Positions 469-52,051 of a stretch of DNA of 64,000 nt are shown piece by piece. The DNA comes from an uncultured Bacteroidia bacterium (GTDB lineage: Bacteria; Bacteroidota; Bacteroidia; Bacteroidales; UBA932). The position numbers and the translations under genes are program-made. The notes under the pieces were generated by a model. The model made no database searches. It saw only the letters and a list, made by a program, of their open reading frames with translations, and was not told the DNA's origin. Each line of letters starts with the position of its first letter. Position 1 is the stretch's first letter. The stretch covers positions 44,504 through 108,503 of the forward strand of contig CADBAY010000005.1 in the NCBI GenBank assembly GCA_902792815.1, given 5' to 3'.

Positions 469-2577
469 CTATTTGAAAACATAGCTTATACTGTACAGAT
501 TCTGCGAATCGCCTCCGTAGAGCAGGTCCCACTCTCCGTGGAGCGGTTCCATCCGTCCGCTCTCTTCGTTCCACCAGGTAAACGTGTCTTCGGTCAGCGG
601 TATTTTAACGTCAATGCTTTCTCCGGCCTTGATGCTTACCTTATTGAATCCCCTTAAGCTGAGGCGCGGGCCTGCAGGATCATCAGTCCTGCGGACATAC
701 AGCTGGACTGTTTCTGATGCGTCGCACCCGCCCGTGTTGGTGACAGGAATTATAATATGTCCGCGCCTTACCGAGGCCTTGCCGTATTCAAAATAGGTAT
801 AGCTCAGGCCGAATCCGAAGGGGAAGAGGGGCTTTCCGCCGAAAAAGCGGTATGTCCGCCCTTGCATGTCGTAATTCTCATAGTCGGGAAGGTCGGCGAT
901 GCTGCGGTAGAAAGTAACGGGCAGTTTGCCGGAGGGGCATACGTCGCCAAACAGTACATCGGCAATTGCGGTACCGCCTTCCTGCCCGGGATACCAGGCC
1001 TGAAGGATGGCCGCGCAGCTTTGTGTCTCCCTCTCAAGACCGACTGCGCTGCCGGAGAAATTGACCAGGATCACAGTCTTGCCGGCGCTATGGAGGGCTT
1101 CCAGCAGCTCCCTCTGAACGGCAGGCAACTCTATGTCGGTGCGGTCTCCGCCCTTGAAGCCGGGGAGCTCCACCTCCATCTGCTCGCCTTCGAGAGCGGG
1201 GGAGAGGCCGCCTGCAAATATCACTGTATCAATCCCTTCGAGCTGCTCCAGCAGATTCGCCGGAATAACCTTCCCGGCAACGTGCTGGCAGCCTTGGATG
1301 TAAGTAAGGGATGGAATCCTTTGCAGCAAAGCGTCTTTTAGCGTGACGGTAGAGCGCGGAATGCCGTTGTAGTTGCCCCACTGCATGGCGGCATTGTCGG
1401 CGTTGGGGCCGAGGAGCGCGATGCGGGAACACTTCCCGAGCGGGAGGACTTCGTTTTTGTTCTGGAGAAGTACCAGCGATTCGTGCGCCATCTTCAGCGA
1501 CAGGGCCCTATGTGAGTCGCTTTCAATTATAGCGGTGTCCAGTTTGCTCCAGGGGTCTTTGGCATCAAGTTCTCCAAGGCGGATCCGCTCGCAGAGTACC
1601 CGCTCCAGGCTTCTGTCCACGGTGGCCTCGTCAAGTAATCCTGCACTTACTGCCTCGGGGATGTGGCGGTAGGAGTCGCCGCATTCAAGGTCAACTCCGT
1701 TGTTCAGGGCCGCCGCTACGGCATGGGCGGCGTCGGGACTGTAGCCGTGACGGCCTTGGACAAAAAAGTCGTGAACGGCCCAGCAGTCCGATACCACCAG
1801 CCCGCTGAAGCCCCACTCGCCCCGCAGGATGCTGTTCACCAGATAGTCGCTGGCTCCGCACGGGTGGCCTCTGAAGCGGTTGTAGGCAATCATCACTTCT
1901 TTGACTTCGGCTTTGGTAACAAGTTCTTTGAATGCGGGCAGATATGTTTCGCGGAGATCTCTCTCCGAGGGGTTTACATCGAATTCATGCCTGTTCCATT
2001 CAGGCCCTGAGTGCACTGCAAAGTGCTTGGCGCAAGCGTGGGCTTTGAGCACAGGGGCGTCGGAAGGACCTTGCAGTCCGCGCACTACGGCCGATCCCAT
2101 CATGGCGGTCAGGTAGGGATCCTCGCCATAGGTTTCCATGCCGCGGCCCCAGCGAGGGTCACGGAAGATATTGATATTGGGAGTCCAGAATGTAAGTCCC
2201 TGATAATTACCCACGAAGCCTTGTTCCCGCGCCTGGCGGTTCTTGACGCGTGCCTCGTCGCTTACCACCGTGAATACTTCTTCCAGCAGCGGGACGTTGA
2301 ACGATGCCGCCATCCCTATGGGCATTGGAAAAACGGTGGCGCTGCCGTTGCGCGCTACCCCGTGAAGCGCCTCGTTCCACCAGTTGTACGCCGGAATACC
2401 CAGGGAGTCGATGGGTGCGCTGCCGTGCATCAGCAGCGAAGCCTTCTGCTCAATGTTCAGATGATCAATTATTTGCCTCGCTCTCTCCAGCGCGGCCTCT
2501 TTGCGCTGGATGCCTGAGCATGAGGTCAGGGCCAAAATGACACTGACCGCAAGTGCTGTTGACCGGATTGATTTCAT
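469..2577 (-). CDS. GH3 beta-glucosidase/beta-xylosidase, secreted lipoprotein
   Basis: WTPNINIFRDPRWGRGMETYGEDP, CAKHFAVH and VSDCWA (nucleophile) motifs, plus a C-terminal Fn3-like region. Start moved to MKSIRS at 2577 (lipobox LTSC; promoter at 2596-2603). Confidence 0.92.
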   Translation of the reverse strand: MKSIRSTALAVSVILALTSCSGIQRKEAALERARQIIDHLNIEQKASLLMHGSAPIDSLGIPAYNWWNEALHGVARNGSATVFPMPIGMAASFNVPLLEEVFTVVSDEARVKNRQAREQGFVGNYQGLTFWTPNINIFRDPRWGRGMETYGEDPYLTAMMGSAVVRGLQGPSDAPVLKAHACAKHFAVHSGPEWNRHEFDVNPSERDLRETYLPAFKELVTKAEVKEVMIAYNRFRGHPCGASDYLVNSILRGEWGFSGLVVSDCWAVHDFFVQGRHGYSPDAAHAVAAALNNGVDLECGDSYRHIPEAVSAGLLDEATVDRSLERVLCERIRLGELDAKDPWSKLDTAIIESDSHRALSLKMAHESLVLLQNKNEVLPLGKCSRIALLGPNADNAAMQWGNYNGIPRSTVTLKDALLQRIPSLTYIQGCQHVAGKVIPANLLEQLEGIDTVIFAGGLSPALEGEQMEVELPGFKGGDRTDIELPAVQRELLEALHSAGKTVILVNFSGSAVGLERETQSCAAILQAWYPGQEGGTAIADVLFGDVCPSGKLPVTFYRSIADLPDYENYDMQGRTYRFFGGKPLFPFGFGLSYTYFEYGKASVRRGHIIIPVTNTGGCDASETVQLYVRRTDDPAGPRLSLRGFNKVSIKAGESIDVKIPLTEDTFTWWNEESGRMEPLHGEWDLLYGGDSQNLYSISYVFK

Positions 2578-2595
2578 ATTCTGAATTAAGATTAT

Positions 2596-2603
2596 CAAAG
2601 TTA
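2596..2603 (-). promoter_or_regulatory. -7 promoter element (TAacTTTG) for GH3
   Basis: Exact consensus on the minus strand above ATG 2577; divergent from the tRNA promoter. Confidence 0.6.
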
Positions 2604-2621
2604 ACAAAAAGCCAAAAAAGA

Positions 2622-2653
2622 TTTGCAAGATATCAGAAAAAGTTATACATTTG
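2622..2653 (+). promoter_or_regulatory. Bacteroidetes -33/-7 promoter of the tRNA
   Basis: TTTG at 2622-2625 and TAcaTTTG at 2646-2653, 20 nt apart, 10 nt before the tRNA. Confidence 0.75.
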
Positions 2654-2663
2654 CGGTCCAATT

Positions 2664-2736
2664 CTGGATGTGGCGCAGTTGGTAGCGCACCTGGTTAGGG
2701 ACCAGGAGGTCGCTGGTTCAAGTCCAGTCATCCAGA
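2664..2736 (+). tRNA. tRNA-Pro, anticodon AGG (2697-2699); CCA not encoded
   Basis: Full cloverleaf folded by hand: acceptor CTGGATG/CATCCAG with A73, D stem GCGC/GCGC, anticodon stem CCTGG/CCAGG with loop TTAGGGA, T arm GCTGG-TTCAAGT-CCAGT. Pro identity elements C1-G72, A73, G35, G36 and G37 are present. Confidence 0.93.
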
Positions 2737-2746
2737 CAATGGCTTT

Positions 2747-2784
2747 ACAGGCACTTGCGGAAACGCAGGTGCTTGTTCTTTTTT
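2747..2784 (+). terminator. Intrinsic terminator after the tRNA
   Basis: ACAGGCACTTGCG-GAAA-CGCAGGTGCTTGT stem with a GNRA loop, followed by TCTTTTTT. Confidence 0.8.
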
Positions 2785-2837
2785 GTGCTCCCCGCATTAA
2801 TCACTGAACTTTTTTATAGTTTGACAAGATATTTTAT

Positions 2838-2845
2838 TATATTTG
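2838..2845 (+). promoter_or_regulatory. -7 element (TAtaTTTG) for the SusC locus
   Basis: Exact consensus 23 nt above the SusC ATG; no correctly spaced -33 seen. Confidence 0.55.
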
Positions 2846-2868
2846 TAAGTCAACTGTAGTAGTGTATT

Positions 2869-5800
2869 ATGTCTATCTATAACGGGGTATTCACCAAACT
2901 CCTGACGCTTGTTGTAATATTAGTGTCATTATCCGCTCCTACCTTGCAGGCCCAGAACACCCGCCAGGTAAAGGGAACTGTATATGACGAGACAGGGGAG
3001 CCCTTCCCTGGAGTAATCGTTATGAGCCGTAAGCATAAACTCGCCGCCACTACCGATATAGACGGTAAGTTCATCTTGTCGGGAGTTCCTGCAGATGCTG
3101 TACTTTCGGTGGAGATAATGAGTTACAAGACTCAGGAGATTCGTGTAGCCGATATTAAAAAAGATCTGAAAATCTATCTTGAGCCGGACAGCCAGGTTCT
3201 GGAAGAGTCGGTGGTTACCGGTATTTTTACGCGTAAGAAAGACAGTTTCACCGGCTCGGTACAGTCCATGACAAGCGAGGATATCAAGAGGGTTTCCAAC
3301 AGCAATGTGGTTGAGTCACTCAAAAACCTCGACCCTTCGCTGCTTGTTTTGGACAACCTTGAAGCGGGTTCCAACCCCAATGCCATGGCCTCGATGCAGA
3401 TCCGCGGCGCATCCACGCTGGCCGCCGAGACCTCCAACCTCAAGAGCAACTTCCTGGCCAAAGCCAACCAGCCTCTCTTCATCCTTGACGGTTTTGAAAC
3501 AACTCTGGAGAAGGTGACCGATATGGATATGAACCGTGTCCAGAGCATAACTATCCTTAAAGACGCTTCCGCCAAGGCAATCTACGGCTCGAAGGGTGCC
3601 AACGGCGTCATCGTCATCGAGACCAAGGCGCTCACCAACGACAAGAGCCGTGTCACCTACAACGGAAGTCTCTCTATCGAGGCTCCGGACCTTACGAGTT
3701 ACAATCTGTGCAACTCCCTCGAGAAACTGGATGTGGAAAGGCGCGAGGGCTACTATCAGAACGGCGATTCCTTCGAGACCGTGGCCCGGCAGGCCCTATA
3801 CAACGAAAGGCTTAAGAAGGCCCTGGAAGGCCAGGATACTTACTGGCTCTCCAAACCTCTGCGGCTTGGAATCGGGCAGAAACACTCCGTGAGTATCGAA
3901 CTTGGTTCCAAGGAACTGAGGGCCCTGGCTACTTTCTCTTACAACGACACCCAGGGGGCAATGAAAGGCTCTTTCCGTGACGTGATCTCCGGCAATGTGA
4001 ACGTGGCATACAGGCGCGGCGGATGGACTTTCCGTAACATCATGGGCATCTCGCACATGAACAGCTCCGAGTCTCCTTGGGGCAACTTCAACGAGTATGC
4101 GGTCCTGAATCCATACCTCACCCCCTACGATGAGGAAGGAAATCTCAAGAAAGTGCTTCAGATAAAGGATTATACGTACGGTGGGGTATCCACTTTCTTC
4201 GGACTTGTAATGAACCCTATGTACAACGCTACGATAGGCACTACCGACACAAGCCAGTATCTTGCCATATCCGACAATTTCTACGCCGAGTACCAGTTCC
4301 TCAAATTCCTGCGCCTGGTAGCCCGTTTCGGTATTGATTCCCAGAAGACCAGGACCGATGAGTTCAAGCCGGGGCAGCATACCGACTTCTACGACACCAA
4401 CGAAATCCTGCGGCGAGGCAGCTACGAGCAGTCGAACGGAAGCTATACCACCTACTCGGGCGACGTGTCGGCGCAGCTCAACCACAATATTGCCGGCAAG
4501 CACGACCTCTTCGCCACCCTTGACTGGAGCATCTCCCAGACCAACTACGAGGAGATAGTCAACTACACGGAAGGCTTCCCGAACAGCAACATGAAGAGCA
4601 TCACCTTCGCCCGCCAGTATGCCACGGATATGGTGCCCACGGGCAGTGACGGCCTGAACAGGAACCTCGGAGCCCTTGCCACTGCGGGCTACAGCTATGA
4701 CAACCGTTATATGGCGGACGCAACCATCAAGGGCAGCGCTTCTTCCGTTTTCGGCACCAAAAACCACTGGGGCCTATTCTGGAGCGCCGGCCTTGCCTGG
4801 AACATCCACAACGAGCGCTGGATGAAGGACAAGGTGTCCTGGATCACACAGCTGAAACTCAGGGCCAGCCTTGGGTCTTCCGGCAACCAGAACTACACCA
4901 GCAATGTGGCCCTGCCAGTATATACCTACTACTCTTCCGCATACTACAGCGGTTTCACCGGAGCTGCGTTGAACAATATGGCCAATCCCGAGTTGGGCTG
5001 GGAGGAAAAAATGGACTACAACGTGGGAATCGATTTCCGCACCAGGTCGCTTAACGTAGTCCTGGATGCGTATATCGCCGATACCCGGAACCTTGTATTC
5101 TCCAGGACCATACTGCCGTCCACCGGATTCTTGTCCACCAACGACAACCTCGGCAAGGTCCGAAACAAGGGTCTGGAGGCCAGCGTGAGCTGGACCTTCT
5201 ACCGCCGGGGGGCGTCGTACATCAGCCTGTTCAGCAAAACCGCGATTAACGACAACAGGGTGCTGGAAATCTCCGACGTCCTCAAGTCCTACAATGAGCA
5301 GCAGCAGGCGCGTGCGAAGGAAACCGGAATGGCCGATCCCGTAATCCAATACTACGACGGTATGCCCCTGCACTCGATCTGGGTGGTACGCTCACTCGGA
5401 ATCAACTCGGCCGATGGCTATGAGATCTTCCTGGACAGGAACGGCAACATCACCACTCAATGGAGTCCTTCCAACCTATATAATGCGGGATCGTCCGACC
5501 CGCTGTTCAACGGTAACTTCGGCATCAACGGAGAAGTCAAAGGCTTCGGATTCAGCCTCACTGCCACTTTCTATGGCGGAGGCTATCTCTACAACAATAC
5601 TCTCCTGAACAAGGTCGAGAACACCACTCTCGAAAACAATGTGGACAGGAGGGTATTCAGCGGCCGCTGGGCCAAGGCCGGAGACGTGGCGCCGTTCAAA
5701 GCGCAGAGCGGGATAGGGGGTGCCGTTACCAAGGCTACCAGCCGCTTCGTCCAGAAGAACGACGTGCTCAACCTTTCCTCCGCCACCCTGTACTATGAGT

Positions 5801-27383: not shown

Positions 27384-28421
27384 ATGAAAAAATTGTTTTT
27401 GATTGCGGCTGCCCTGCTTGTGGGCTTTATGGCTGCGGCACAAGAAGAAGAGACTCCTAATTACGGATATAAAGAAGGCGCTTTTGCGAGCGTCCCCAAG
27501 GTGGGAGCTTACATTATCGGTTCTTATAAATACAGCGACAAAGAAGGCGCCAACGGCGGCCCCGGTTTCAATGCCCGCTTGATCCGTGCGTATGTTGACG
27601 GTAGCATCTACCATCAGTTCAACTACAGGGTCCAGCTCCAGTTCAACGGTGGCCCTCACGTCAAGGATTTCTATGTGGAGTGGGCCAAGTACAAGTTCTT
27701 CTCCGTCAAGATGGGTCAGTTCAAGAGGGCCTTCACCTTCGAGAACCCTATGAACCCCTGGGACGTAGGAGCAGGCGACTTCTCCTTCCTGGTGCAGAAA
27801 ATGGCCGGTATGGGCGACCGTCTGGGCGAGGCCAACATGGGCGGACGTGACCAGGGTATCCAGATCCAGGGTGACTTCCTTCCCGTCGGCAAAGACGAGC
27901 ACCCTCTCTTCCACTATCAGCTCGGATTGTGGAACGGCCAGGGTATCAACGTGACCGACAAAGACCTCAAGAAAGATATCATCGGAACCTTCCAGGTGCA
28001 GCCCATCAAGGGCCTCAAGCTGGGCGTGTTCGGATGGAAGGGTAACTGGATCGACGGCGAAGGCAACGACCTCAAGCGTGAGAGAATCAGCGCCGGCGTG
28101 TCCTTCGACCGCAACAACTGGACATTCCGCAGCGAATATGCTACTGCAATCGCCGGTGAAAAGGCCCAGAGCGGCCCGGCCGATGCCCTTTACGTTACTG
28201 TGGGAGTGCCTGTTACCGATTGGTTCAAGGTGTATGCCAAGTGGGATGAGTTCCGCTCTGCGGCAACCGCCGAGACCAGCCACGACATGTATTCCTGCAT
28301 AGCCAACTTCCGTCTGCACAAGAACCTTAATTTCCAGCTGGAGTATCGTTACCACAACGACATGCTCTATACCGGGCGTCACTATAACGAAATCTGGTTC
28401 GAGACTTACATCAGGTGGTAA
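27384..28421 (+). CDS. OprO/OprP-like porin
   Basis: Signal peptide; RLIRAYVDG, MGQFKRAFTFEN, GRDQGIQ; C-terminal Trp; 1 nt after the DASS gene. Confidence 0.8.
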   Translation: MKKLFLIAAALLVGFMAAAQEEETPNYGYKEGAFASVPKVGAYIIGSYKYSDKEGANGGPGFNARLIRAYVDGSIYHQFNYRVQLQFNGGPHVKDFYVEWAKYKFFSVKMGQFKRAFTFENPMNPWDVGAGDFSFLVQKMAGMGDRLGEANMGGRDQGIQIQGDFLPVGKDEHPLFHYQLGLWNGQGINVTDKDLKKDIIGTFQVQPIKGLKLGVFGWKGNWIDGEGNDLKRERISAGVSFDRNNWTFRSEYATAIAGEKAQSGPADALYVTVGVPVTDWFKVYAKWDEFRSAATAETSHDMYSCIANFRLHKNLNFQLEYRYHNDMLYTGRHYNEIWFETYIRW

Positions 28422-28477
28422 TGATTTGATTTTACTGCCTGCCGGCCGTCTGCGCCCACGCAGTAAAATTAAATCAT
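28421..28477. repeat. 18-bp AT-rich inverted repeat with a 21-nt spacer (terminator or operator)
   Basis: ATGATTTGATTTTACTGC (28421-28438) / GCAGTAAAATTAAATCAT (28460-28477), one G-T pair. Confidence 0.7.
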
Positions 28478-28516
28478 AACTTGAAATAGACCTGTCATAC
28501 TTTGCATTATTATCAG

Positions 28517-36767: not shown

Positions 36768-37991
36768 ATGATTGATTTCGAGCCCGTATATTCGCACCGC
36801 TCTACGGTTTATAACCTGCTCGGCTTTGAGCCTGGCAAGGTGGATGGGGCATATTTGAAAGCGTTGGGCGTAGGGGTGGAGCCTTCGGAAGAGACTCTGG
36901 AAGCCCTTCGGAGGGGCTCCGAAGTGTTTGAAAGGCGTTTTAGAGAGCATCTGCTGATACCTCGCCAGCGCTTCTGCCTTGAAGATATTGCCCCGGCTTC
37001 GGTAACTCCCGTGATTCATAATTATACCGGCCGCTGTCCCACCCTGACTTACGAGATAAACCCTGTAAAAGGCTGTACGGTGGGCTGTCAGTACTGCCTA
37101 GTGAGCGACGGGGTGCACGAGCAGGAGCTTATGGCTTATGACAATTACCACCTCTATGTGAGGCGCCTGCTGGAGGAGCATAACGGGCCTGGCAGCGACA
37201 ATGCGCGGCACTACTATTATTTTTCGCCCAAAACCGAGGCGTTTCAGGAAGCGACGCTCTACACCGGTATCGCCCACAGGATACTTAGGGAATTCATAGA
37301 GCATTTCCGCCGCTGCCCACATTCGAACGCCCGTCTTTTCATAGCGTCCAAAGCGGGAGCAAAGCATTTGCAGATTGCTGACGGAGGAGAAACAGTCCTT
37401 GATCTTTTTGCCCGGCTGAAGGGGCGTATGCAGTTCAATACCAGCGTTTCCATTATGCCGGATGCATTCCGCGACATACTGGAGCCTTACGCAGCCCCGC
37501 TCTCCGAGCGGCTGGAGGCGGTGCGTTTGTGCTCTGAGAAGGGAGTGGCGGCCGATTCCGCCCTGGTGCAGCCGATTATCACCCCGTGGCTTACACGGGA
37601 GCACATCGAAAGCTTTTTCGGAGCACTGAGAGGAGTGGGAATAATAAACTACAAGCCTGAGTTCCTTACCGCTTGCGTGGAGAATCTCTCTATGCTGGGC
37701 CAGTACCTCGGCTGGTTCGACAAGGGCCTCGAGCGGCAGCTGTATGAAGATTATCTGATGCCGTCCAACGAGTCTCACCGCAAGCAGAGGGCCCGCATAG
37801 CACCCGACAAGGCGCGAAGCCGCGCCTACTTGAAGGCCATGATGGAGTGTACCGACCATTTGGGTATGAGCGTAAGTATCTGCTACTGGGTGCGTAAGCA
37901 GCTTGGTATCGAAGAGTCTCAGATTCCGTTTATCAACCGCAACGGCTTCCAGTGTCTTGGCTATCAGTCTAAACTTTTCGGCGATGTATAG
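36768..37991 (+). CDS. Radical SAM protein, spore-photoproduct-lyase-like clade
   Basis: INPVKGCTVGCQYC (CxxxCxxC); EPYAAPLSERLEAVRL..KGV pattern of SPL-like enzymes. Start moved to MIDFEP at 36768. Confidence 0.8.
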   Translation: MIDFEPVYSHRSTVYNLLGFEPGKVDGAYLKALGVGVEPSEETLEALRRGSEVFERRFREHLLIPRQRFCLEDIAPASVTPVIHNYTGRCPTLTYEINPVKGCTVGCQYCLVSDGVHEQELMAYDNYHLYVRRLLEEHNGPGSDNARHYYYFSPKTEAFQEATLYTGIAHRILREFIEHFRRCPHSNARLFIASKAGAKHLQIADGGETVLDLFARLKGRMQFNTSVSIMPDAFRDILEPYAAPLSERLEAVRLCSEKGVAADSALVQPIITPWLTREHIESFFGALRGVGIINYKPEFLTACVENLSMLGQYLGWFDKGLERQLYEDYLMPSNESHRKQRARIAPDKARSRAYLKAMMECTDHLGMSVSICYWVRKQLGIEESQIPFINRNGFQCLGYQSKLFGDV

Positions 37992-39243
37992 CGACCTTGC
38001 AGATTATTATCTTCGCTGGTATCATTCCCGCCCGGTGGCAATCACCGGCGGGAGACGTGAAGAGCTGCACCGTCTGCACCGTGTGCTAATGAAGTGCATC
38101 GACTTTTTCGCTCTGAACTACCGGCGCCTGGTGCCCGAATATATGCCGCTGGGAGATAAGGAGATGCAGATTCTGGATGAGCAGAGCCGCTACCCGTGGC
38201 GGGCCGGCACCTTCCGCCCCGACTATATCGTCTCCTCCGACGGCCGCCTGCTGCTCTGCGAGATTACCTCGCGTTTCTTCGCCCACGGAATCTTCATGTC
38301 CTGGTTCGGCGAGACTTTTATCTACAGGTTTTTGGCTGCTGCCGGCGAGTGCACGGAGGACGCAGGAGCCGCTTCGCGGCCCTTCCCTAAAGGGCCCCTC
38401 CCTCTTCCGGTGCCGAGGGTGGCACGTCCTGCGTCCTCCGCGCCCCCGCCGGCAGCAGAATTCCAGGAGATGATGGACTATATGCTCTCTATCGCCGGTG
38501 ACGCCAGGGAAATGTATGTATTCAAGAGCGCCGACCGCAGCGGCGAAATCCGCCTTTACACCCGCTTCTATCAATCACACGGCATAAAAGTAACTCTTAT
38601 CGAAGCCCCCGAAGTCGAGGCCCGCCGCGCCGAATGGGACCGCCCGGGAGTGTTTCTTGTGAGCGCCCTCAATCAGGTGGACATCTTATCTTACGGCATG
38701 GACACGCTGAAGGCAATGATGCAAAGGGGTATGTACAGCGACTTCCGCAACATTTTCCTTGTTCACGACAAGCGCTTCATGAGCCTGTGGTTCAACGATG
38801 ATTTTACCTCGCAGTGCCTAAGCCCCGGGGAGACCTCTTTGCTTCGCGCACATGCCATCCCTACTTATGTTACCCTGCCGCCTGATATCAGGGAGCATAA
38901 AGACCGCTATATCCTGAAGCCCTGCCGCCTCGGTAAAAGTGAGGGGGTTAATGCCGGCGTGCTTTGCACTGATGAAGAATGGAACGCCGTCCTTGACAGC
39001 GGTCCGGCTTCGGCGATGATCTGCCAACCGTTTATCAGTCAGCGCACTGTGCCTACGGTCTGGGAGGGAACGGAGTTCAACGATTATTTGTGCGGAATGA
39101 TGCTGTGCGTGAACGACCGTCTTTTCGACTGCAGCCATTTCCGCTGTTCCAGCCTTCCGGTAACCAACATCGGAGACGACCGCAAGGCCGCCGTACTGTT
39201 TACCGACGATCCGGCCCTTCTAAAACTCTGCGACGTACTATGA
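37984..39243 (+). CDS. Circularly permuted ATP-grasp / glutathionylspermidine-synthase-like amide ligase
   Basis: FRPDY..DGRLLLCEITSR, VHDKRF, YILKPCRLGKSEGV and ICQPFI appear in the permuted order. Start at ATG 37984 overlaps the rSAM stop. Carries a Pro/Ala-rich insert. Confidence 0.65.
   Translation: MYSDLADYYLRWYHSRPVAITGGRREELHRLHRVLMKCIDFFALNYRRLVPEYMPLGDKEMQILDEQSRYPWRAGTFRPDYIVSSDGRLLLCEITSRFFAHGIFMSWFGETFIYRFLAAAGECTEDAGAASRPFPKGPLPLPVPRVARPASSAPPPAAEFQEMMDYMLSIAGDAREMYVFKSADRSGEIRLYTRFYQSHGIKVTLIEAPEVEARRAEWDRPGVFLVSALNQVDILSYGMDTLKAMMQRGMYSDFRNIFLVHDKRFMSLWFNDDFTSQCLSPGETSLLRAHAIPTYVTLPPDIREHKDRYILKPCRLGKSEGVNAGVLCTDEEWNAVLDSGPASAMICQPFISQRTVPTVWEGTEFNDYLCGMMLCVNDRLFDCSHFRCSSLPVTNIGDDRKAAVLFTDDPALLKLCDVL
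38336..38458. mobile_element. 123-nt palindromic MITE/REP-like element, in frame inside the ATP-grasp CDS
   Basis: 32-nt arms (38336-38367 / 38427-38458) with 3 mismatches; core motifs shared with 50911-51038. Confidence 0.65.
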
Positions 39244-39959
39244 CGATAGCCGGAAACCAGCCGTACTTCTTCCCGTACTTCCCTTATTGGCAGCTTATTG
39301 CAGCGGCCGATGTGTTCGTTGTGAGTGACGACTACGCCTATATAAAGGCCGGCTGGGTAAACCGCAACCGCATACTTGTAAATGGTAAGCCGCATTATTT
39401 CAGGCTTGATGTAAAGCACTCCGGTGGTCCGCGCTTCATCAAGGATAAGAAGATTGTCCCTTTCGATGCCGGGACCAAGCTGCGGACTCTCGAGATGGCA
39501 TACCATTCAGCTCCGTATTTCGCTCAAGGATATCAGCTTACAGAACGCATACTCAGTTACCCGGGGGATGACTTGCTCGGTATTCTGGAGCTGTCAATCA
39601 ATGAAATATGCAACTATCTGGGCATACAGACCAGACTGGTGAGGAGTTCTTCTTTCGCGGGTAACGCTTCACTGAGGCGCGAGGAACGAATTTTCGACTT
39701 TTGCCGCACTCTTGGAGCCGACAGGTACATCAACGCCATAGGCGGACAGGCCCTGTACAGTAAAGAGGAGTTCAGGCGGGAGGGGGTGGAACTAAAGTTC
39801 CTGCAAAGTACCATGCCGCCGTACAGCCAGGCCCTCAGATTCCGGAGGCGCACTACCTGGGGCAGGGAGTTCGTGAAGGATCTCTCTGTGCTGGACGCCA
39901 TTATGTTCAACTCCCGAGAGGCCCTGCACGATATGCTGGGAGCGTACCGATTGATATGA
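39240..39959 (+). CDS. WbqC-family protein
   Basis: NQPYFFPYFPYWQLIAAADVFVVSDD, WVNRNRI, YHSAPYF, YINAIGG..LY, LSVLDAIMFN; ATGA overlap. Confidence 0.92.
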   Translation: MTIAGNQPYFFPYFPYWQLIAAADVFVVSDDYAYIKAGWVNRNRILVNGKPHYFRLDVKHSGGPRFIKDKKIVPFDAGTKLRTLEMAYHSAPYFAQGYQLTERILSYPGDDLLGILELSINEICNYLGIQTRLVRSSSFAGNASLRREERIFDFCRTLGADRYINAIGGQALYSKEEFRREGVELKFLQSTMPPYSQALRFRRRTTWGREFVKDLSVLDAIMFNSREALHDMLGAYRLI

Positions 39960-40768
39960 TGGTTACCGTAATATGCCTGGCCTACAATCATGGCCCTTAT
40001 ATACGCGACGCCCTTGAGGGCTTCGTGATGCAGAAGACCGCGTTCCCTTTTGAAGTGATAGTGCATGACGATGCCTCCACTGACGATACGCCCCGGATTA
40101 TCCGTGAATACGCAAGCCGCTACCCCGATATCATTCGCCCGGTGTTCCAGACGGAGAACCAGTATTCGAAGGGGATACCCATTTCGCAGACGTTTTTGTT
40201 CCCTCTGGTCAGAGGGCGCTATGTGGCTCTGTGCGAAGGCGACGACTATTGGACCGACCCGCTTAAGCTTTCCCGTCAGGTGGAAGCTCTGGAAGCAAAC
40301 CCGGGGGTTGACATATGCACCCACAAAGTGCTTAAAACCAAGAACGGAGCCCCTCACGGCTATGAGGGACCGGCCCGCGGCGGCCTTATTCCGGCCGGGA
40401 GGGTAATCCTGGGCGGGGGAGGCTTCGTAGCCACGTCTTCCATAATGTGCCGCACCGGATGCTACATGGATATTACTCCCATGCGCAAGGCGCTTTTGAT
40501 CGACTATACTCTCCAGGTGCAGGGCTCGCTCCGGGGCGGAATGCTGTATCTGCCTGATTGTATGGGAGTTTACCGCCGCGGCGTGCCGCATTCCTGGACC
40601 ACTGTGCACAGCGGGGCCAACAAGGCCGATGCATACCCGCGGTTTATCAGTATGCTTGATGAGCTAGATGCCTATACCCGGGGGCGCTACCGCTCCGCCA
40701 TCCGCCTTCGTAAGCTGTTTTACAAGGCTCATATTCAGTTCCGTAATCTTCAAAAGAAATTCCGATGA
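39956..40768 (+). CDS. GT2 glycosyltransferase
   Basis: CLAYNH, HDDASTD, YVALCEGDDYWTDPLKL. Confidence 0.93.
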   Translation: MMVTVICLAYNHGPYIRDALEGFVMQKTAFPFEVIVHDDASTDDTPRIIREYASRYPDIIRPVFQTENQYSKGIPISQTFLFPLVRGRYVALCEGDDYWTDPLKLSRQVEALEANPGVDICTHKVLKTKNGAPHGYEGPARGGLIPAGRVILGGGGFVATSSIMCRTGCYMDITPMRKALLIDYTLQVQGSLRGGMLYLPDCMGVYRRGVPHSWTTVHSGANKADAYPRFISMLDELDAYTRGRYRSAIRLRKLFYKAHIQFRNLQKKFR

Positions 40769-41859
40769 AAGATAAACGCCTGGAAGTTACCCGCACTACG
40801 CTCCCTCCGTTCGAGGAATTCTGCAACGAAATACGGCCTCTGTGGGATAGTTGCATGGTGACCAATATGGGGCCTAAACACGAGGAGTTTGAAGCGGCTC
40901 TGCGCGAGCGGCTCGGCTGCCGGGAGGTCTGCCTTTTTGCCAACGGCCATTTGGCGCTGGAGGCCGCCCTTCGCGCCCTGAGGCTGCCTGCCGGGTCGGA
41001 AGTTATTACCACTCCCTTTACCTTCGTTTCCACAACACATGCCATAGTGCGCTGCGGCCTGAAACCTGTTTTCTGTGACGTCCGCCCCTCCGACGGCACC
41101 CTTGACCCCGATGCGGCAGAGGCCCTCGTCACTGCACGCACATCGGCCATATTGCCCGTCCATGTGTATGGTAATGTGTGCGATGTTGAGCGCCTGGGCG
41201 CCCTGGCCCGCCGCTATTCGCTGAAACTGGTTTACGATGCCGCCCACGCCTTTACCGAGTATGCCGGCGGCAGGCACGCAGCTGCCTGGGGAGATGCTTC
41301 TGTGCTGAGTTTTCACGCCACCAAGCTGTTCAGTACCGTTGAGGGCGGCGCGGTGTGTACCGATGATGCCGGCCTTGTGCAGGCGCTCCGGGATGAGAGA
41401 AATTTCGGGATACGCAGTAAAGAGTGCTGCTCGTATATCGGCGGGAATGCCAAGCTGAACGAGTTCCAGGCAATAATGGGTCTTTGCAACCTCCGGCATC
41501 TCGACGCCGCCCTGGATGCCCGAAGGAAGGCTGCCGGGCTCTATCGCGGCTTGCTTTCAGCTGAGGCGGGAGGCACGCAGCCGTTCCCGTCGGGAGCTTC
41601 TTATTTCCCGGTGCTGTTTGCTTCACAGAGCGAGCGTGACGCTGCCGCGGACACCCTCGAGCGCAACGGAATAGGAGCCAGGAAGTACTTCTGGCCTCTT
41701 ACTTCAGATATGGATTGCTACAGCGCGTTTGCCAAGGGTGACACTCCCGTGGCCAGGGATCTGTCGGCACGTATCCTCACCCTGCCGTTGTATCCCGGTC
41801 TTGCCGAGGAAGATATTTACCGGGTGTGCAGCTTGGTCCGGGGGATTACAACGATGTAG
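40765..41859 (+). CDS. DegT/DnrJ/EryC1/StrS aminotransferase, VioA-like
   Basis: TNMGP, LFANGHLAL, TTPFTFVST, YDAAHAF, SFHATKLF (PLP Lys), NAKLNE, LTLPLYP. Confidence 0.9.
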   Translation: MKDKRLEVTRTTLPPFEEFCNEIRPLWDSCMVTNMGPKHEEFEAALRERLGCREVCLFANGHLALEAALRALRLPAGSEVITTPFTFVSTTHAIVRCGLKPVFCDVRPSDGTLDPDAAEALVTARTSAILPVHVYGNVCDVERLGALARRYSLKLVYDAAHAFTEYAGGRHAAAWGDASVLSFHATKLFSTVEGGAVCTDDAGLVQALRDERNFGIRSKECCSYIGGNAKLNEFQAIMGLCNLRHLDAALDARRKAAGLYRGLLSAEAGGTQPFPSGASYFPVLFASQSERDAAADTLERNGIGARKYFWPLTSDMDCYSAFAKGDTPVARDLSARILTLPLYPGLAEEDIYRVCSLVRGITTM

Positions 41860-49008: not shown

Positions 49009-49274
49009 AGACAGTACCTGGTTTTACACTTCGTCCGCTTGGAAAAGAGTTCATCATTACCGCCGAGAGCATCCAGAAGATTAATTTCAACAAGATGATT
49101 TCGCTCAACGAGTCGGCGGCTTTTCTGTGGAAAGAAGTTGACGGTAAGGAGTTTACCCCCGACGATCTGGCCGACTTGCTGGTGAGCCGCTACGAGGTAG
49201 ACCGCGAGACCGCGCTCAAAGATTCGGAGGCTATTGCCGCCAAGTGGATTGAAGCTGGAATAGTTACTGAGTAA
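49005..49274 (+). CDS. PqqD-family protein (RiPP recognition element)
   Basis: 89 aa; ISLNESAAFLWKEV...LADLLVSRYEVDRETALKDS winged-helix pattern. Confidence 0.85.
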   Translation: MKTVPGFTLRPLGKEFIITAESIQKINFNKMISLNESAAFLWKEVDGKEFTPDDLADLLVSRYEVDRETALKDSEAIAAKWIEAGIVTE

Positions 49275-50908
49275 TGAGACCTTTCCGCTCGTGTTTCAGG
49301 GGATTGATGCGCATGGTGCGCGGACAGAGGTTCCGCATACTTGTGAGCGTGTTGATCGGTTTGGTGGGCGTTGCCGCCTCCCTGGGATTCGTGTGGATAT
49401 CGAAGAAGGTCGTTGACGTGGCCACCGGAGATCCGGGGACACCCCTGACTCCTTCGGTGCTAATTATGCTCGGCATTATGCTCCTCCAGCTGTTTTGCCG
49501 GGTAGGAGGCCGTTATTGGGAGGGGCTGATTGTGGTAAAGGCGCAGAACGCCCTTCGCTCTTCGGCTTTCCGTAAGGTTATGTTCAGTACCTGGAGCGGT
49601 AAGGACCGTCTGCACAGCGGCGACACCGTTAACCGTCTGGAAGAGGATATCAGGGTAGTGGTGGACTTTATTTGCGTGAGCCTGCCCGACGCTCTTATTA
49701 CCCTTATCCAACTGCTTGGTGCATCGGTGTTTATATTCGTCCTTTCGCCCAACCTCGCCTGGATACTGCTGCTTATTATGCCCGTGGCAGTGCTGTGCAG
49801 CCGCCTTTTCTTCAAGAAGCTGCGTGCTCTGACCGGAGAGATCCGCTCGGGTGACGCCCGTGTGCAGGGCCATATACAGGAGAATACGCAGCGCCGTGTG
49901 CTGGTGCGTATGCTCGGGGCGACGGGGCGTGTCATCGAAAAGCTGGGCGGATTGCAGGATTATGTGTACGGAAAGACTGTTACCCGCCTGAATTACAATG
50001 CGATTTCGCGCGGTTTCATGCAGCTGGGCTTCTCGGCTGGATATGCCCTGGTTTTCCTGTGGGGCTTGTTCGGGCTGCGTGACGGGACAATAACTTACGG
50101 CACCATGGTGGCTTTCCTCCAGCTGGTGGGGCAGGTCCAGCGCCCGGTTGCAGGCATTGCTTTGCAGATTCCGGCGTTTATACGCGCTCTTTCTTCTGAA
50201 GACCGTCTTCTCGACCTTGTTGAGGCGCCCCAGGAAGAAGAGGGGAGCGATATTGTGCTGCAGGGCGCTCCGGGTGTAAAGGTTGAGGGAGTGAGCTTTA
50301 CTTATGAGGGGGTCAACAACCCTGTGGTGCGCGGGCTTGACTTTGATTTTACTCCCGGTTCCATGACCGCCATTATCGGTTCGACTGGTGCGGGCAAATC
50401 TACTTTGGTGCGTGTGATCATGGCTCTTCTGCAGCCCGACTGCGGAACCATTACGCTTTACGACGGTACCGGTGCCCGTGTGCCTTCGGGCGTGAGGACG
50501 CGTTGTAATTTTATGTATGTTCCGCAGGGTAACTCTTTGATGAGCGGTACTATACGTGAGAATCTCCTGCTGGCCAAGCCCGATGCTGATGAGGATGAAT
50601 TAAGGGAGGTGCTGCATTTGGCGGCGGCCGATTTCGTGTATGAGTTGCAGGATGGCCTGGAGACTACTTGTGCTGAGATTGGTGCGGGCTTGAGTGAGGG
50701 GCAGGCGCAGAGGATTGCTATTGCGCGTGCTTTGTTGCGGCCGGGTGGGATCCTGGTTCTTGACGAGGCTACTTCGGCGCTTGATGCTGATACTGAGCTT
50801 GAGCTTTTGGAGCGGCTTGGGGCTCGGTTCCGCGGGACCAAGACCATCCTTTGCATTACCCATCGTCCGGCGGCGACTTCTTATGCCGATAAAGTTTTGA
50901 AGCTATAG
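49274..50908 (+). CDS. ABC exporter (fused TMD-NBD)
   Basis: TM helices; GSTGAGKS, LSEGQAQR, ILVLDEATSALD, ITHR. Confidence 0.93.
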   Translation: MRPFRSCFRGLMRMVRGQRFRILVSVLIGLVGVAASLGFVWISKKVVDVATGDPGTPLTPSVLIMLGIMLLQLFCRVGGRYWEGLIVVKAQNALRSSAFRKVMFSTWSGKDRLHSGDTVNRLEEDIRVVVDFICVSLPDALITLIQLLGASVFIFVLSPNLAWILLLIMPVAVLCSRLFFKKLRALTGEIRSGDARVQGHIQENTQRRVLVRMLGATGRVIEKLGGLQDYVYGKTVTRLNYNAISRGFMQLGFSAGYALVFLWGLFGLRDGTITYGTMVAFLQLVGQVQRPVAGIALQIPAFIRALSSEDRLLDLVEAPQEEEGSDIVLQGAPGVKVEGVSFTYEGVNNPVVRGLDFDFTPGSMTAIIGSTGAGKSTLVRVIMALLQPDCGTITLYDGTGARVPSGVRTRCNFMYVPQGNSLMSGTIRENLLLAKPDADEDELREVLHLAAADFVYELQDGLETTCAEIGAGLSEGQAQRIAIARALLRPGGILVLDEATSALDADTELELLERLGARFRGTKTILCITHRPAATSYADKVLKL

Positions 50909-50910
50909 GT

Positions 50911-51038
50911 CCCCGTTGGCTGACGCCGCCCGGAAACTTCGCTTCGCTCATCCCTCCCGCTGCACTTCGTTTGCGGGCCCCTCCCGTTCACGTGGTCACG
51001 GGCGGCCACGGTTTCCCCAGAGGCGTCAGCCACCGGGG
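50911..51038. mobile_element. 128-nt palindromic MITE/REP-like element between convergent genes
   Basis: 17-nt arms CCCCGTTGGCTGACGCC / GGCGTCAGCCACCGGGG (1 mismatch), inner GGAAAC/GTTTCC, core GCTTCGC...GGGCCCCTCCC plus a hairpin. Confidence 0.65.
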
Positions 51039-51043
51039 ATGGA

Positions 51044-51973
51044 TCAGAATCCGGTGGAGGTCCAGGTGAGGTCGGAGCTTATGAGGCAGGCTTCTATGCC
51101 GGGGTGATCTTCAACCCAGCTGCGCGCTTTCTCGAAACCGATTACCATAAAGTATGTGGCCAGGGCGTCAGCCTCGGTGGCCGTAGGGGCTATGACCGTG
51201 GCGCTCAATAGATTATGGTCAACGGGGCGTCCTGTCCGGGGGTCGATGGTGTGGGCGTATTTCTTGCCGTCCTTGATGTAGAATTTGCGGTAGTTGCCTG
51301 AAGTTACCACTCCATAGGCGCCCCCGTCGGAATGCCAGAGACCGGAGATGGATGCTCCGGGGGTATTGTTCCCGTCGGATGGAGTGTCGATGGCAATGGT
51401 CCAGCCCTGCCCCTTGGGGTTCAGGCCTTCGCAGTAGATTTCTCCTATATCCACCAGCATGTCCTTGACGCCTATCGAATGCAGGTATGCGGCCACTTTG
51501 TCGCAGCTGTAGCCCTGGGCTATGGCGTTGAAATTCAGCACTTCGCGTTTGCGGCATCGCTCCATTGCGGCAGATATTGCCTCTTCCGACGGGAGGCTGT
51601 CTGCGGTGAATCCGAAGCCCCAGACATCAAACAGGGGCCCCGCCGCCACGTCGAAAGCTCCGCCGCTCAGCTCCCGGTAGTGCTCCGAAATATCTTCAAT
51701 CTCGCGGAACATATCGTTCAGTTCAACATTCTCGCCTGCGTTCCTGCGGCTCAGAAGCGATTTGCGGTTGTATCCCGAGAGCGTGGTGTCGATCTGCTCC
51801 AGGATTCCGTCCACGGCCTGCTGCGCCTCGGCGCGGCTCACTTTCACCCCTGCGGGATTATATTTTACGCTGTATATGCCGCCTTGGGCATAGCCGCCCA
51901 GAGTTACGTATTCTTGCGTGCATGCGCCTGAAACTAACGCTGCAATGGCTAAAAGTGCTGTTTTTAGCTTCAT
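51044..51973 (-). CDS. apbE: FAD:protein FMN transferase ApbE
   Basis: Lipobox SGAC; FNAIAQGY, IGEI, VVTSGNYR, HTIDPRTG, ADALAT. Confidence 0.9.
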   Translation of the reverse strand: MKLKTALLAIAALVSGACTQEYVTLGGYAQGGIYSVKYNPAGVKVSRAEAQQAVDGILEQIDTTLSGYNRKSLLSRRNAGENVELNDMFREIEDISEHYRELSGGAFDVAAGPLFDVWGFGFTADSLPSEEAISAAMERCRKREVLNFNAIAQGYSCDKVAAYLHSIGVKDMLVDIGEIYCEGLNPKGQGWTIAIDTPSDGNNTPGASISGLWHSDGGAYGVVTSGNYRKFYIKDGKKYAHTIDPRTGRPVDHNLLSATVIAPTATEADALATYFMVIGFEKARSWVEDHPGIEACLISSDLTWTSTGF

Positions 51974-52051
51974 TTTCGGCAAAGTATTTGTACAAAGGTA
52001 GCGGAAATTCGCGTAAAATTGACCATATTTGCAATTTGTAACCCTAAAAAG

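Follow-up and report, generated by a model that had tools for sequence, protein, structure and literature searches.

The stretch of DNA analysed here, referred to as the window, comprises 64,000 nucleotides of contig CADBAY010000005.1 (assembly GCA_902792815.1, positions 44,504 to 108,503 of the forward strand) from an uncultured Bacteroidia bacterium of the Bacteroidales lineage UBA932. On its plus strand, a gene at 37987-39243 for a protein of 418 aa, assigned to an ATP-grasp-type ligase from the open reading frame (ORF), a structure match and phmmer, carries within its reading frame a palindromic element, el1, at 38336-38458. El1 belongs to a large repeat family, apparently not described before, that occurs in Bacteroidales of the cattle gut and the rumen; the window holds a second copy of it, el2, between two convergent genes.

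El1, its host gene and the encoded loop

The two arms of el1 (helix P1) are 32 nt long each, lie 59 nt apart at 38336-38367 (CTGCTGCCGGCGAGTGCACGGAGGACGCAGGA) and 38427-38458 (TCCTGCGTCCTCCGCGCCCCCGCCGGCAGCAG), and pair at 29 of 32 positions (91% complementary), the three mismatches of the right arm to the left being all A.C or T.C. They form the longest inverted repeat of the whole window. The left arm is followed by the P2 hairpin GCCGC-TTC-GCGGC (38368-38380), which contains the family-wide CGCTTCGCG box, and then by the C-rich boxes CCTTCCC and GGGCCCCTCCC (38381-38402, the latter at 38392-38402). These boxes are among the most conserved columns of the family and flank the mini-hairpin P3, CCC-TAAA-GGG (38385-38394), which is supported by covariation. 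In helix S1 (38400-38419), CCCTC at 38400-38404 pairs with GAGGG at 38415-38419. The 3' strand of S1 lies in the loop of hairpin S2, CGGTGCC ... GGCACG (38408-38426, with GTGCC at 38410-38414 and GGCAC at 38421-38425), which likewise covaries. All these parts are given in plus-strand orientation. The predicted RNA fold has an energy of -86.4 kcal/mol against -57.7 +/- 3.8 kcal/mol for 200 dinucleotide shuffles (z = -7.6), none of which reaches it, and the DNA fold gives the same z of -7.6. The GC content is 74.8% in el1 and 54.9% in the window.

El1 starts at the second base of codon 117 and spans residues ~117-157. Its 123 nt amount to 41 codons without a stop in the frame of the host ORF, and excision of 38336-38458 leaves TAC AGG TTT TTG GAA TTC CAG GAG (YRFLEFQE) with the frame kept. 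The original prediction, a reading of the same DNA without database searches, had described a palindrome with these paired arms, inner hairpins, stop-free codons, encoded peptide and in-frame excision, and the description proves accurate.

No family is assigned to the host protein by the Pfam copy used or by NCBIfam. A precomputed Pfam label names PF28486 'AnkG_N', which is absent from the results with the Pfam copy used. A phmmer search against the PDB finds one solved structure, 9cjn (Ligase Cp1B). The AlphaFold2 model (mean pLDDT 77.9, pTM 0.79) has the same structure as its best Foldseek match (E 2.5e-16, TM 0.68), followed by glutathione synthetases and YgiC/YjfC. Judged by this modelled fold, the host protein is an ATP-grasp ligase, as had been assumed at the outset. 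Residues 123-156 have a pLDDT of 29-39 and no secondary structure, and lie between confident helices at 98-118 and 156-169; the remainder of the model is confident as well. The model thus predicts that the insert forms a disordered loop within a linker between domains of the ligase. Placement in a surface loop or linker that suits the fold, as in the class of Rickettsia palindromic elements (RPEs), is therefore predicted here in an AlphaFold2 check made for the window protein only. The insert is almost certainly translated into a loop of about 41 residues rich in proline, alanine and glycine, and there is no sign that this loop serves the ligase enzyme.

The host gene belongs to a densely packed cluster at 36771-41859, in which starts and stops overlap. 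A radical-SAM gene (36771-37991) precedes the ligase gene and a WbqC-like gene (39240-39959) follows it, both identified with Pfam; further downstream come a family-2 glycosyltransferase and then a DegT/EryC1-type aminotransferase. The order of these genes is kept in the orthologous loci L001, L002, L124 and L126, and the neighbourhood is a sugar-modification cluster. Two other inverted repeats of the window give no match to the family model: a 24-nt AT-rich pair with a 15-nt loop at 28418-28480 (88% complementary) and a 30-nt palindrome at 41672-41701 within the aminotransferase gene.

The repeat family and its conserved core

A plain BLAST search of el1 against the window returns only el1 itself. 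The family became apparent only through a shared 11-mer, GGGCCCCTCCC, and then through a covariance model. El2 was found as the second long inverted repeat of the window and has both GGGCCCCTCCC and CGCTTCGC in common with el1. It lies on the plus strand at 50910-51039, has 27-nt arms and a core of another subtype (GTTCA...ACGGGCGG), and occupies the entire convergent spacer 50909-51043. It starts 2 nt past the stop codon of the gene at 49274-50908 (plus strand) and ends 4 nt short of the gene at 51044-51982 (minus strand).

The pattern CGCTTCGC-N10-35-GGGCCCCTCCC occurs at 120 or more loci in a scan of one genome per GTDB species. The pattern loci listed are overwhelmingly from uncultured rumen and gut Bacteroidales (RUG and RGIG metagenome-assembled genomes, Cryptobacteroides, Muribaculaceae, Rikenellaceae and Bacteroidaceae), with a few chance matches in high-GC phyla. 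Covariance model R1, built from ten copies of el1's subtype, has two matches in the window, el1 (38348-38446, 73.2 bits, E 1e-15) and el2 (50917-51032, 48.2 bits, E 1e-9), and finds 100 copies in 0.8 Mb from about 100 Bacteroidales loci, several of these copies having been missed by the pattern. The original prediction had inferred a Bacteroidales family analogous to the RPEs, an idea that a lack of further copies would have undone; el2 and the 100 model matches bear it out.

Abundance is also visible in the bovine metagenome runs that contain this genome. Over the el1 core, contig depth in these runs climbs from ~10 to 240-1400, and over the el2 core from ~8-20 to 570-5700 (70-250-fold); for the two cores together the increase spans 20-250-fold, and metagenome contigs break there. 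A separate rise, from ~8-20 to 70-400 over about 60 nt, is seen in four bovine metagenome runs at 51236-51299, inside the gene at 51044-51982. What lies there is another repeat or else a gene segment of extreme conservation.

Among 2.9 million viral contigs, there are four pattern matches, none of which is a covariance-model match. Rfam 15 contains no matching family: the only window match at the gathering threshold is a tRNA (2664-2736), and the best matches over el1 are generic hairpins far below threshold (MIR1846, 31 bits against 77.5). The family is not described in any paper brought up by searches of the literature, which were made by topic and by core sequence. When the encoded peptide (GPLPL frame) is used as a profile, 5.8 billion proteins yield only five short matches, because the peptide is too short and variable for a database of that size.

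Elements have a median length of 127 nt and arms with a median of 28.5 nt. A typical copy consists of a conserved core of about 60 nt closed by arms of 20-35 bp, whose sequences vary while their Watson-Crick pairing is kept. In the core, the CGCTTCGCG hairpin is joined by two CCCCTCCC boxes, a variable hairpin of small size and a pair of covarying helices that overlap. Along the C-rich strand, the P1 arm is followed by P2 at CGCTTCGCG, CCCT, P3 (of variable length, with CCC/GGG at its base), CCCCT, the 5' strand of S1 (CCC-NN), about 3 nt and S2, directly after which the right arm begins; the S2 loop contains N'N'-GGG, the 3' strand of S1. The core comes in two main subtypes. Subtype A, which includes el1 with its short P3, reads GTCGCTTCGCGAC...CTCTTA...GAGGGTGG, and subtype B, which includes el2, reads CTTCGCTTCGCTCATCCC...CGTTCA...ACGGGCGG. 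The unpaired C-rich boxes are nearly invariant across copies.

In an alignment of 100 copies, 91.8% of the cells in paired columns form Watson-Crick or wobble pairs; in shuffled data the share is 63.7%. Covariation scores 0.649, whereas shuffles score 0.154 and none of 500 reaches the observed value; the score falls to 0.05-0.07 when the structure is shifted by 1-3 columns. This alignment was fitted to the covariance model, which favours P1-P3 and S2; S1 lies outside the model and was found independently by RNAalifold on a MAFFT alignment. All 20 modelled P1 pairs covary, as do the closing pairs of P2 (GTCGC/GCGAC, GCCGC/GCGGC) and the pairs of S2 (for example GC51/AU22/UA14/CG6). In S1, 98.8% of cells are paired, and its variable pairs are UA57/GC28/AU10 and CG67/UA29. 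G.U pairs make up ~1% of cells, and orthologous copies differ mostly through double changes that keep the pair. The overlap of S1 and S2 in these sequences implies either a pseudoknot or two alternative folds. On the minus strand of 38385-38402, the boxes read GGGAGGGGCCC[hairpin]GGGAGGGG, with four G-tracts, and equivalent boxes are present in all copies. Judged by eye, a G-quadruplex on the G-rich strand, or an i-motif on the C-rich strand, that competes with the hairpin fold is plausible.

Some copies are longer or rearranged. Long variants of ~205-212 nt occur at L030:1203-1398, L119:1227-1412, L123:937-1120 and L044:4746-4957. The first three carry an extra module of ~90 nt, TTCCTCCT..CTCGCT..AAGCTTTCTCT..CGTCGGTTCA, at a fixed point of the core, the loop after CTCCC-NN-TTA, and the copy in L044 carries a different module at that point. 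In L067, S2 and the right arm are partly duplicated in tandem.

Among 80 well-formed copies, 24 (30%) lie within long ORFs, with the C-rich strand sense in 13 and antisense in 11, so that orientation relative to host transcription is random. The copies make use of each of the three sense frames and of two antisense ones. There is no preference among these copies for one frame, a bias for which a check had been suggested, or for one orientation. The ten ORF hosts checked against Pfam have real domains, namely AtpG, RsmH, FolC, TilS, DnaX, an ABC exporter, TrmB, RibF, a YgiQ-like radical-SAM protein and YggS. In most of them the domain resumes on both sides of the element (for example AtpG, RsmH, RibF and DnaX), and several elements fall within catalytic domains. 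The analogy with RPEs that the original prediction had drawn thus holds as a likeness of working, since copies sit in frame in unrelated genes. Elements have 2.46 open frames out of 6, against 2.58 out of 6 in random genome segments; therefore the in-frame copies look like survivors of selection and not like the outcome of a built-in property. Between genes, copies fit into short gaps next to gene ends. About 16 of these gaps are co-directional, 7 convergent and 3 divergent, and the element occurs in them in either orientation.

Arms, insertion history and signs of mobility

In total, 399 homologues of the host protein were found, and the ligase linker, measured between ...HGIFMSWFG and MMDYML, could be scored in 53 of the 120 homologues listed. 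In 42 of these 53, it is short and has no palindrome: 22 aa in 37 proteins and 17-24 aa in a further five. Longer linkers are found in P0007 and P0008 (39 aa), the cluster of the window protein (53 aa), P0009 from L003 (61 aa), P0011 from L124 (63 aa), and P0006 from L001 and P0010 from L126 (69 aa each). Linkers of similar length without the palindrome, which would have told against an insertion, are therefore not the rule among orthologues. The gap of about 41 aa expected in them does exist, as 22 aa against 53 aa, but not at the expected size, the net difference being ~31 aa (93 nt).

The DNA of the long-linker loci L001, L003, L124 and L126 contains elements of the same kind as el1, with cores more than 85% identical to it, in the reverse orientation relative to the gene and with three further unrelated sets of arms. 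Five lineages thus bear elements at the ligase linker, with four unrelated arm sets. The arms are perfect over 31 bp in L124 and 29 bp in L126. L001 and L003 have one insertion in common, and their arms differ by two double, pair-keeping changes. The covariance model gives no match in the alleles L002 and L125. Compared with L001, L002 has a 90-nt gap bounded by the 6-nt repeat GTGCGG. A reading of L002 as a pristine empty site was rejected because the more distant L003 shares the L001 insertion; for the same reason, a secondary deletion between the GTGCGG repeats is the more likely origin of this sequence. Among the orthologues examined, no pristine empty site was found for el1 itself.

A second site of the same ligase gene has also been used. 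In the L132 orthologue, a family member (33.6 bits) with perfect arms of 24 bp lies there, enclosed by the arms of an AT-rich palindrome; L133 and other orthologues have such a palindrome at this site. This AT-rich palindrome (39% GC, ~105 nt) is unrelated to the family and lies in frame between AIPTF and KDEYIIKP in the orthologues P0074, P0084, P0089 and P0095; it occupies L133:1304-1408 and, with the nested GC-rich member, L132:1286-1490 (~205 nt).

The cluster at 100% identity of the host protein has 75 member sequences. A strain 96.7% identical over 5.3 kb, whose host gene has 39 differences in 1257 nt, keeps el1 with a single change in it, 38446 C>T, by which an A.C mismatch becomes an A-T pair. 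There are no metagenome contigs that skip el1, and el1 is carried by the near-identical alleles sampled.

The length gained by a protein can be less than the palindrome. The net gain is 31 aa for a palindrome of 41 aa in the window, 34 aa for 44 aa in the YgiQ-like gene (L004 compared with L013) and 30 aa for 39 aa in L001 compared with L002; in L124 and L126, the whole element appears extra. The first 11-12 nt of the el1 left arm (GCT GCT GCC GGC, codons AAAG) align with the conserved FCAAHG of insert-free orthologues, and in L126 the equivalent codons ACC GCT GGC form the outer left arm. From these alignments, a 123-nt insertion is probably not the exact event, the outer left arm being native linker, and therefore the matching outer right arm must be a secondary inverted copy of host sequence.

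Arms and core also differ in their conservation. Mean pairwise identity is 33% in the outer arm, 59% in the inner 4 bp, 65% in the S2 stems and 83% in the core. In 33 of 48 pairs of copies whose cores are at least 93% identical, the arms are less than 45% identical. The core nearest to that of el1, in L057, is 95% identical to it and has the same S2, yet the arms are only 42% identical; the L036 core is 93% identical. Within single genomes, the two L122 copies, L036/L058 and L038/L062 have cores ~95% identical and unrelated arms. The reverse is seen in the orthologous loci L043 and L098, whose arms are identical but whose cores are only 83% identical and have switched S1 type. Cores from the same genome are not significantly more alike than those from different genomes (0.79 against 0.75, p = 0.34), which gives no support to concerted evolution as the rule. 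Some arm types of ~24 nt are found in unrelated genes, as in atpG (L093) and tilS (L110) and in the group L037/L108/L063. An origin of all arms entirely from the target does not suffice as the only explanation: consensus values of 35-57% are reached at arm positions, a common arm (GGTTTCAGAAG...) is seen at loose contig ends in the metagenomes, and the ~24-nt arms occur in unrelated genes.

Usual marks of transposition are scarce. No target-site duplication is present in 49 of 80 copies, the others having 1-4 nt, which is the chance level, and the copies have no conserved terminal sequence. No gene family recurs beside copies at more than 4 of 78 loci, a survey of neighbouring genes only, and a RAYT or IS200/IS605 partner, which the original prediction had proposed, was not found among these neighbours. 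Orientation shows no relation to local GC skew (35 positive, 41 negative, p = 0.49). A pyrimidine-pyrimidine mismatch recurs 6-7 nt from the inner end of the stem. The lack of target duplications, conserved termini and a recurrent neighbour, the random orientation, the few G.U pairs and the mismatches would together fit recognition of a folded single strand, by analogy with REP/RAYT systems, IS200/IS605 ends and attC sites.

Interpretation and related repeat families

El1 is probably a copy of a large non-coding, non-autonomous, RPE-like family of selfish palindromes that is tolerated in the linker of the ligase. Such a family would multiply at the DNA level through an enzyme supplied in trans that recognises the folded single strand by its structure and core; the foremost candidate is an HUH/Y1 transposase of RAYT or IS200/IS605 type. 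Copies would persist where they do little harm, that is, in gene-end spacers and, if stop-free and in frame, in permissive protein loops and linkers. Intrastrand template switching (palindrome correction), selection for pairing, or both may preserve the stem and lengthen it outward into host sequence. Growth by template switching would make the outer arms specific to the locus and enlarge the palindrome with no gain in length; alternatively, the outer arms may derive from an inverted duplication of the flank when the element inserted.

Several observations weigh against this interpretation. The el1 inner arm together with P2 is found at this locus alone in a scan of the metagenome collection, and by this sequence evidence el1 is therefore an old copy, without a sign of mobility of its own. 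No transposase, fresh insertion or unambiguous empty site was found among the loci examined, and the sole allele that had seemed empty, L002, is better explained by the deletion described above. Identity of arms and identity of cores are uncorrelated over 4950 pairs of copies (rho = 0.01), a decoupling that simple copy-and-diverge transposition does not predict. Arm mismatches are strand-asymmetric, with 51 A.C against 23 G.T (p = 0.0015) and 54 C.T or T.C (pyrimidine-pyrimidine) against 3 A.G (purine-purine; p = 4e-13). This asymmetry points to one functional single strand and is unexplained by the favoured model. Furthermore, the asymmetric, apparently pseudoknotted core is conserved beyond the needs of a selfish palindrome and could have a cellular function. 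For transcription, the evidence consists of contigs assembled from RNA runs, in which DNA may be present: one joins the el1 core to the downstream coding sequence, another continues through the L001-type allele, and none has a skipping joint. On this weak evidence, el1 appears to stay in the mRNA.

Several of these points would be expected if the element were a functional structured RNA module, such as a cis-acting mRNA stabiliser, an RNase III or processing site, a translational pause or a small RNA, with the ORF copies as by-products. Its five helices covary strongly, two of them overlapping, and the C-rich boxes hardly vary. Intergenic copies sit tightly at gene ends, within operons and between convergent genes, the mismatches correspond to G.U and G.A on the G-rich strand, and the element is present in RNA-run contigs. 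However, an asymmetric core that acts as RNA should prefer one orientation, and orientation is random both in ORFs and in co-directional spacers. The G.U content is far below what is usual for selected RNA helices, Rfam has no such family, and a module that destabilises mRNA would be costly in the catalytic domains of essential enzymes, where copies are found. An RNA module is therefore unlikely. The same RNA-run contigs bear on an intervening sequence, excised as an intron-like RNA or spliced or cleaved out as a peptide. A length that is an exact multiple of three and a fold that brings the ends together would suit such an element, but the contigs continue from the core into the coding sequence without a skipping joint, no similarity to group I or II introns or to Rfam families is found, the 41 residues rich in proline, alanine and glycine have no intein features, and ORF copies lie in both orientations and several frames. 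This explanation is very unlikely.

The copy number, the size of ~110-140 bp, the long inverted repeats and the lack of coding capacity recall a classical MITE (miniature inverted-repeat transposable element), that is, a deletion derivative of an insertion sequence moved by a DDE transposase through terminal inverted repeats with target duplications. In such an element the ends would be the conserved part, and here they are not, the gradient of identity from outer arm to core being the reverse; there is neither a target-site duplication nor a recurrent transposase beside copies. This origin is largely refuted and very unlikely. A one-off palindrome, formed in the linker by template switching during replication, would explain why the outer left arm consists of native codons and why the el1 arms are found nowhere else. 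It is refuted for the core, which matches the cores of L057 and L036 in other genomes and contexts, scores 73 bits and has hundreds of relatives; as an account of el1 as a whole it can practically be dismissed, and it survives for the outer arms.

For the arms, there is a further reading, which is unlikely. The core of ~60 nt may be the real unit recognised by an enzyme, and the arms may be rebuilt at each locus by inverted duplication of the flank or by template-switching extension. Hints in its favour are the lack of correlation between arms and cores, the like cores with unrelated arms, the three net gains that fall about one arm short of the palindrome, and the native 'AA.G' codons of which the outer left arm consists, as seen both in the window and in L126. 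Subfamily arms of ~24 nt in unrelated genes and the addition of a whole element in L124 and L126 are contrary to it. If this were true, the family would have a mode of spread or maintenance not described for bacterial repeats, a new DNA transaction, and would steadily supply new peptide segments to essential genes of a dominant gut and rumen order.

The family has practical consequences. Metagenome assemblies are broken at the element, the diversity of protein families is inflated by low-complexity inserts, and gene callers can be misled. The inserts also mark natural permissive sites in many enzymes, and the genes affected include atpG, dnaX, rsmH, tilS, ribF and folC.

Among known repeats, the repetitive extragenic palindromes (REPs) and their composites, BIMEs and REPINs with their RAYTs, as well as the ends of IS200/IS605 elements, resemble the family in the proposed recognition of a folded single strand by an enzyme in trans and in the lack of target duplications. 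REPs and REPINs also occupy gene ends, operon spacers and the space between convergent genes, and have conserved stem mismatches. However, REPs are 20-40 nt long, have a conserved 5' tetranucleotide and are extragenic; the family is 110-140 nt long, conserves its apical core and, at odds with an extragenic location, has 30% of its copies inside ORFs. The enterobacterial ERIC/IRU and neisserial Correia elements (~100-155 bp) are similar in size and are likewise transcribed imperfect palindromes with occasional intragenic copies in an open frame. Conserved terminal repeats and a TA duplication are features of Correia elements and not of this family. BrickBuilt, a MITE of Porphyromonas, is a small repeat of the same order that is reported to be strictly intergenic (PMC10969869). 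None of ERIC/IRU, Correia and BrickBuilt has a conserved core with free, covarying arms, and the design of the family, with overlapping covarying helices in its core, differs from those of the described repeat families compared.

The closest likeness is to the Rickettsia elements RPE-1 to RPE-10 (Ogata et al. 2000, in the summary given by PMC10969869). Like these, the family consists of multi-copy palindromic repeats 100-150 bp long, many of which lie in frame in unrelated housekeeping genes and add a stretch of peptide without destroying the protein, with others in intergenic regions, and no recognised transposase, terminal repeats or target duplications are associated with them. Unlike the RPEs, which are AT-rich and belong to obligate intracellular Alphaproteobacteria, the family is GC-rich and belongs to free-living gut and rumen Bacteroidales; it has no single conserved frame or peptide, and its internal core is conserved with the arms nearly free. 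The family is thus RPE-like in its working, and membership in RPE-1 to RPE-10 is not claimed. A 2024 review regards in-frame palindromic repeats as exceptional, and its only Bacteroidales example, Porphyromonas, has intergenic MITEs only (PMC10969869). Protein-remodelling palindromes of this kind, essentially known from Rickettsia, have a counterpart in abundant free-living Bacteroidales of the gut and rumen.

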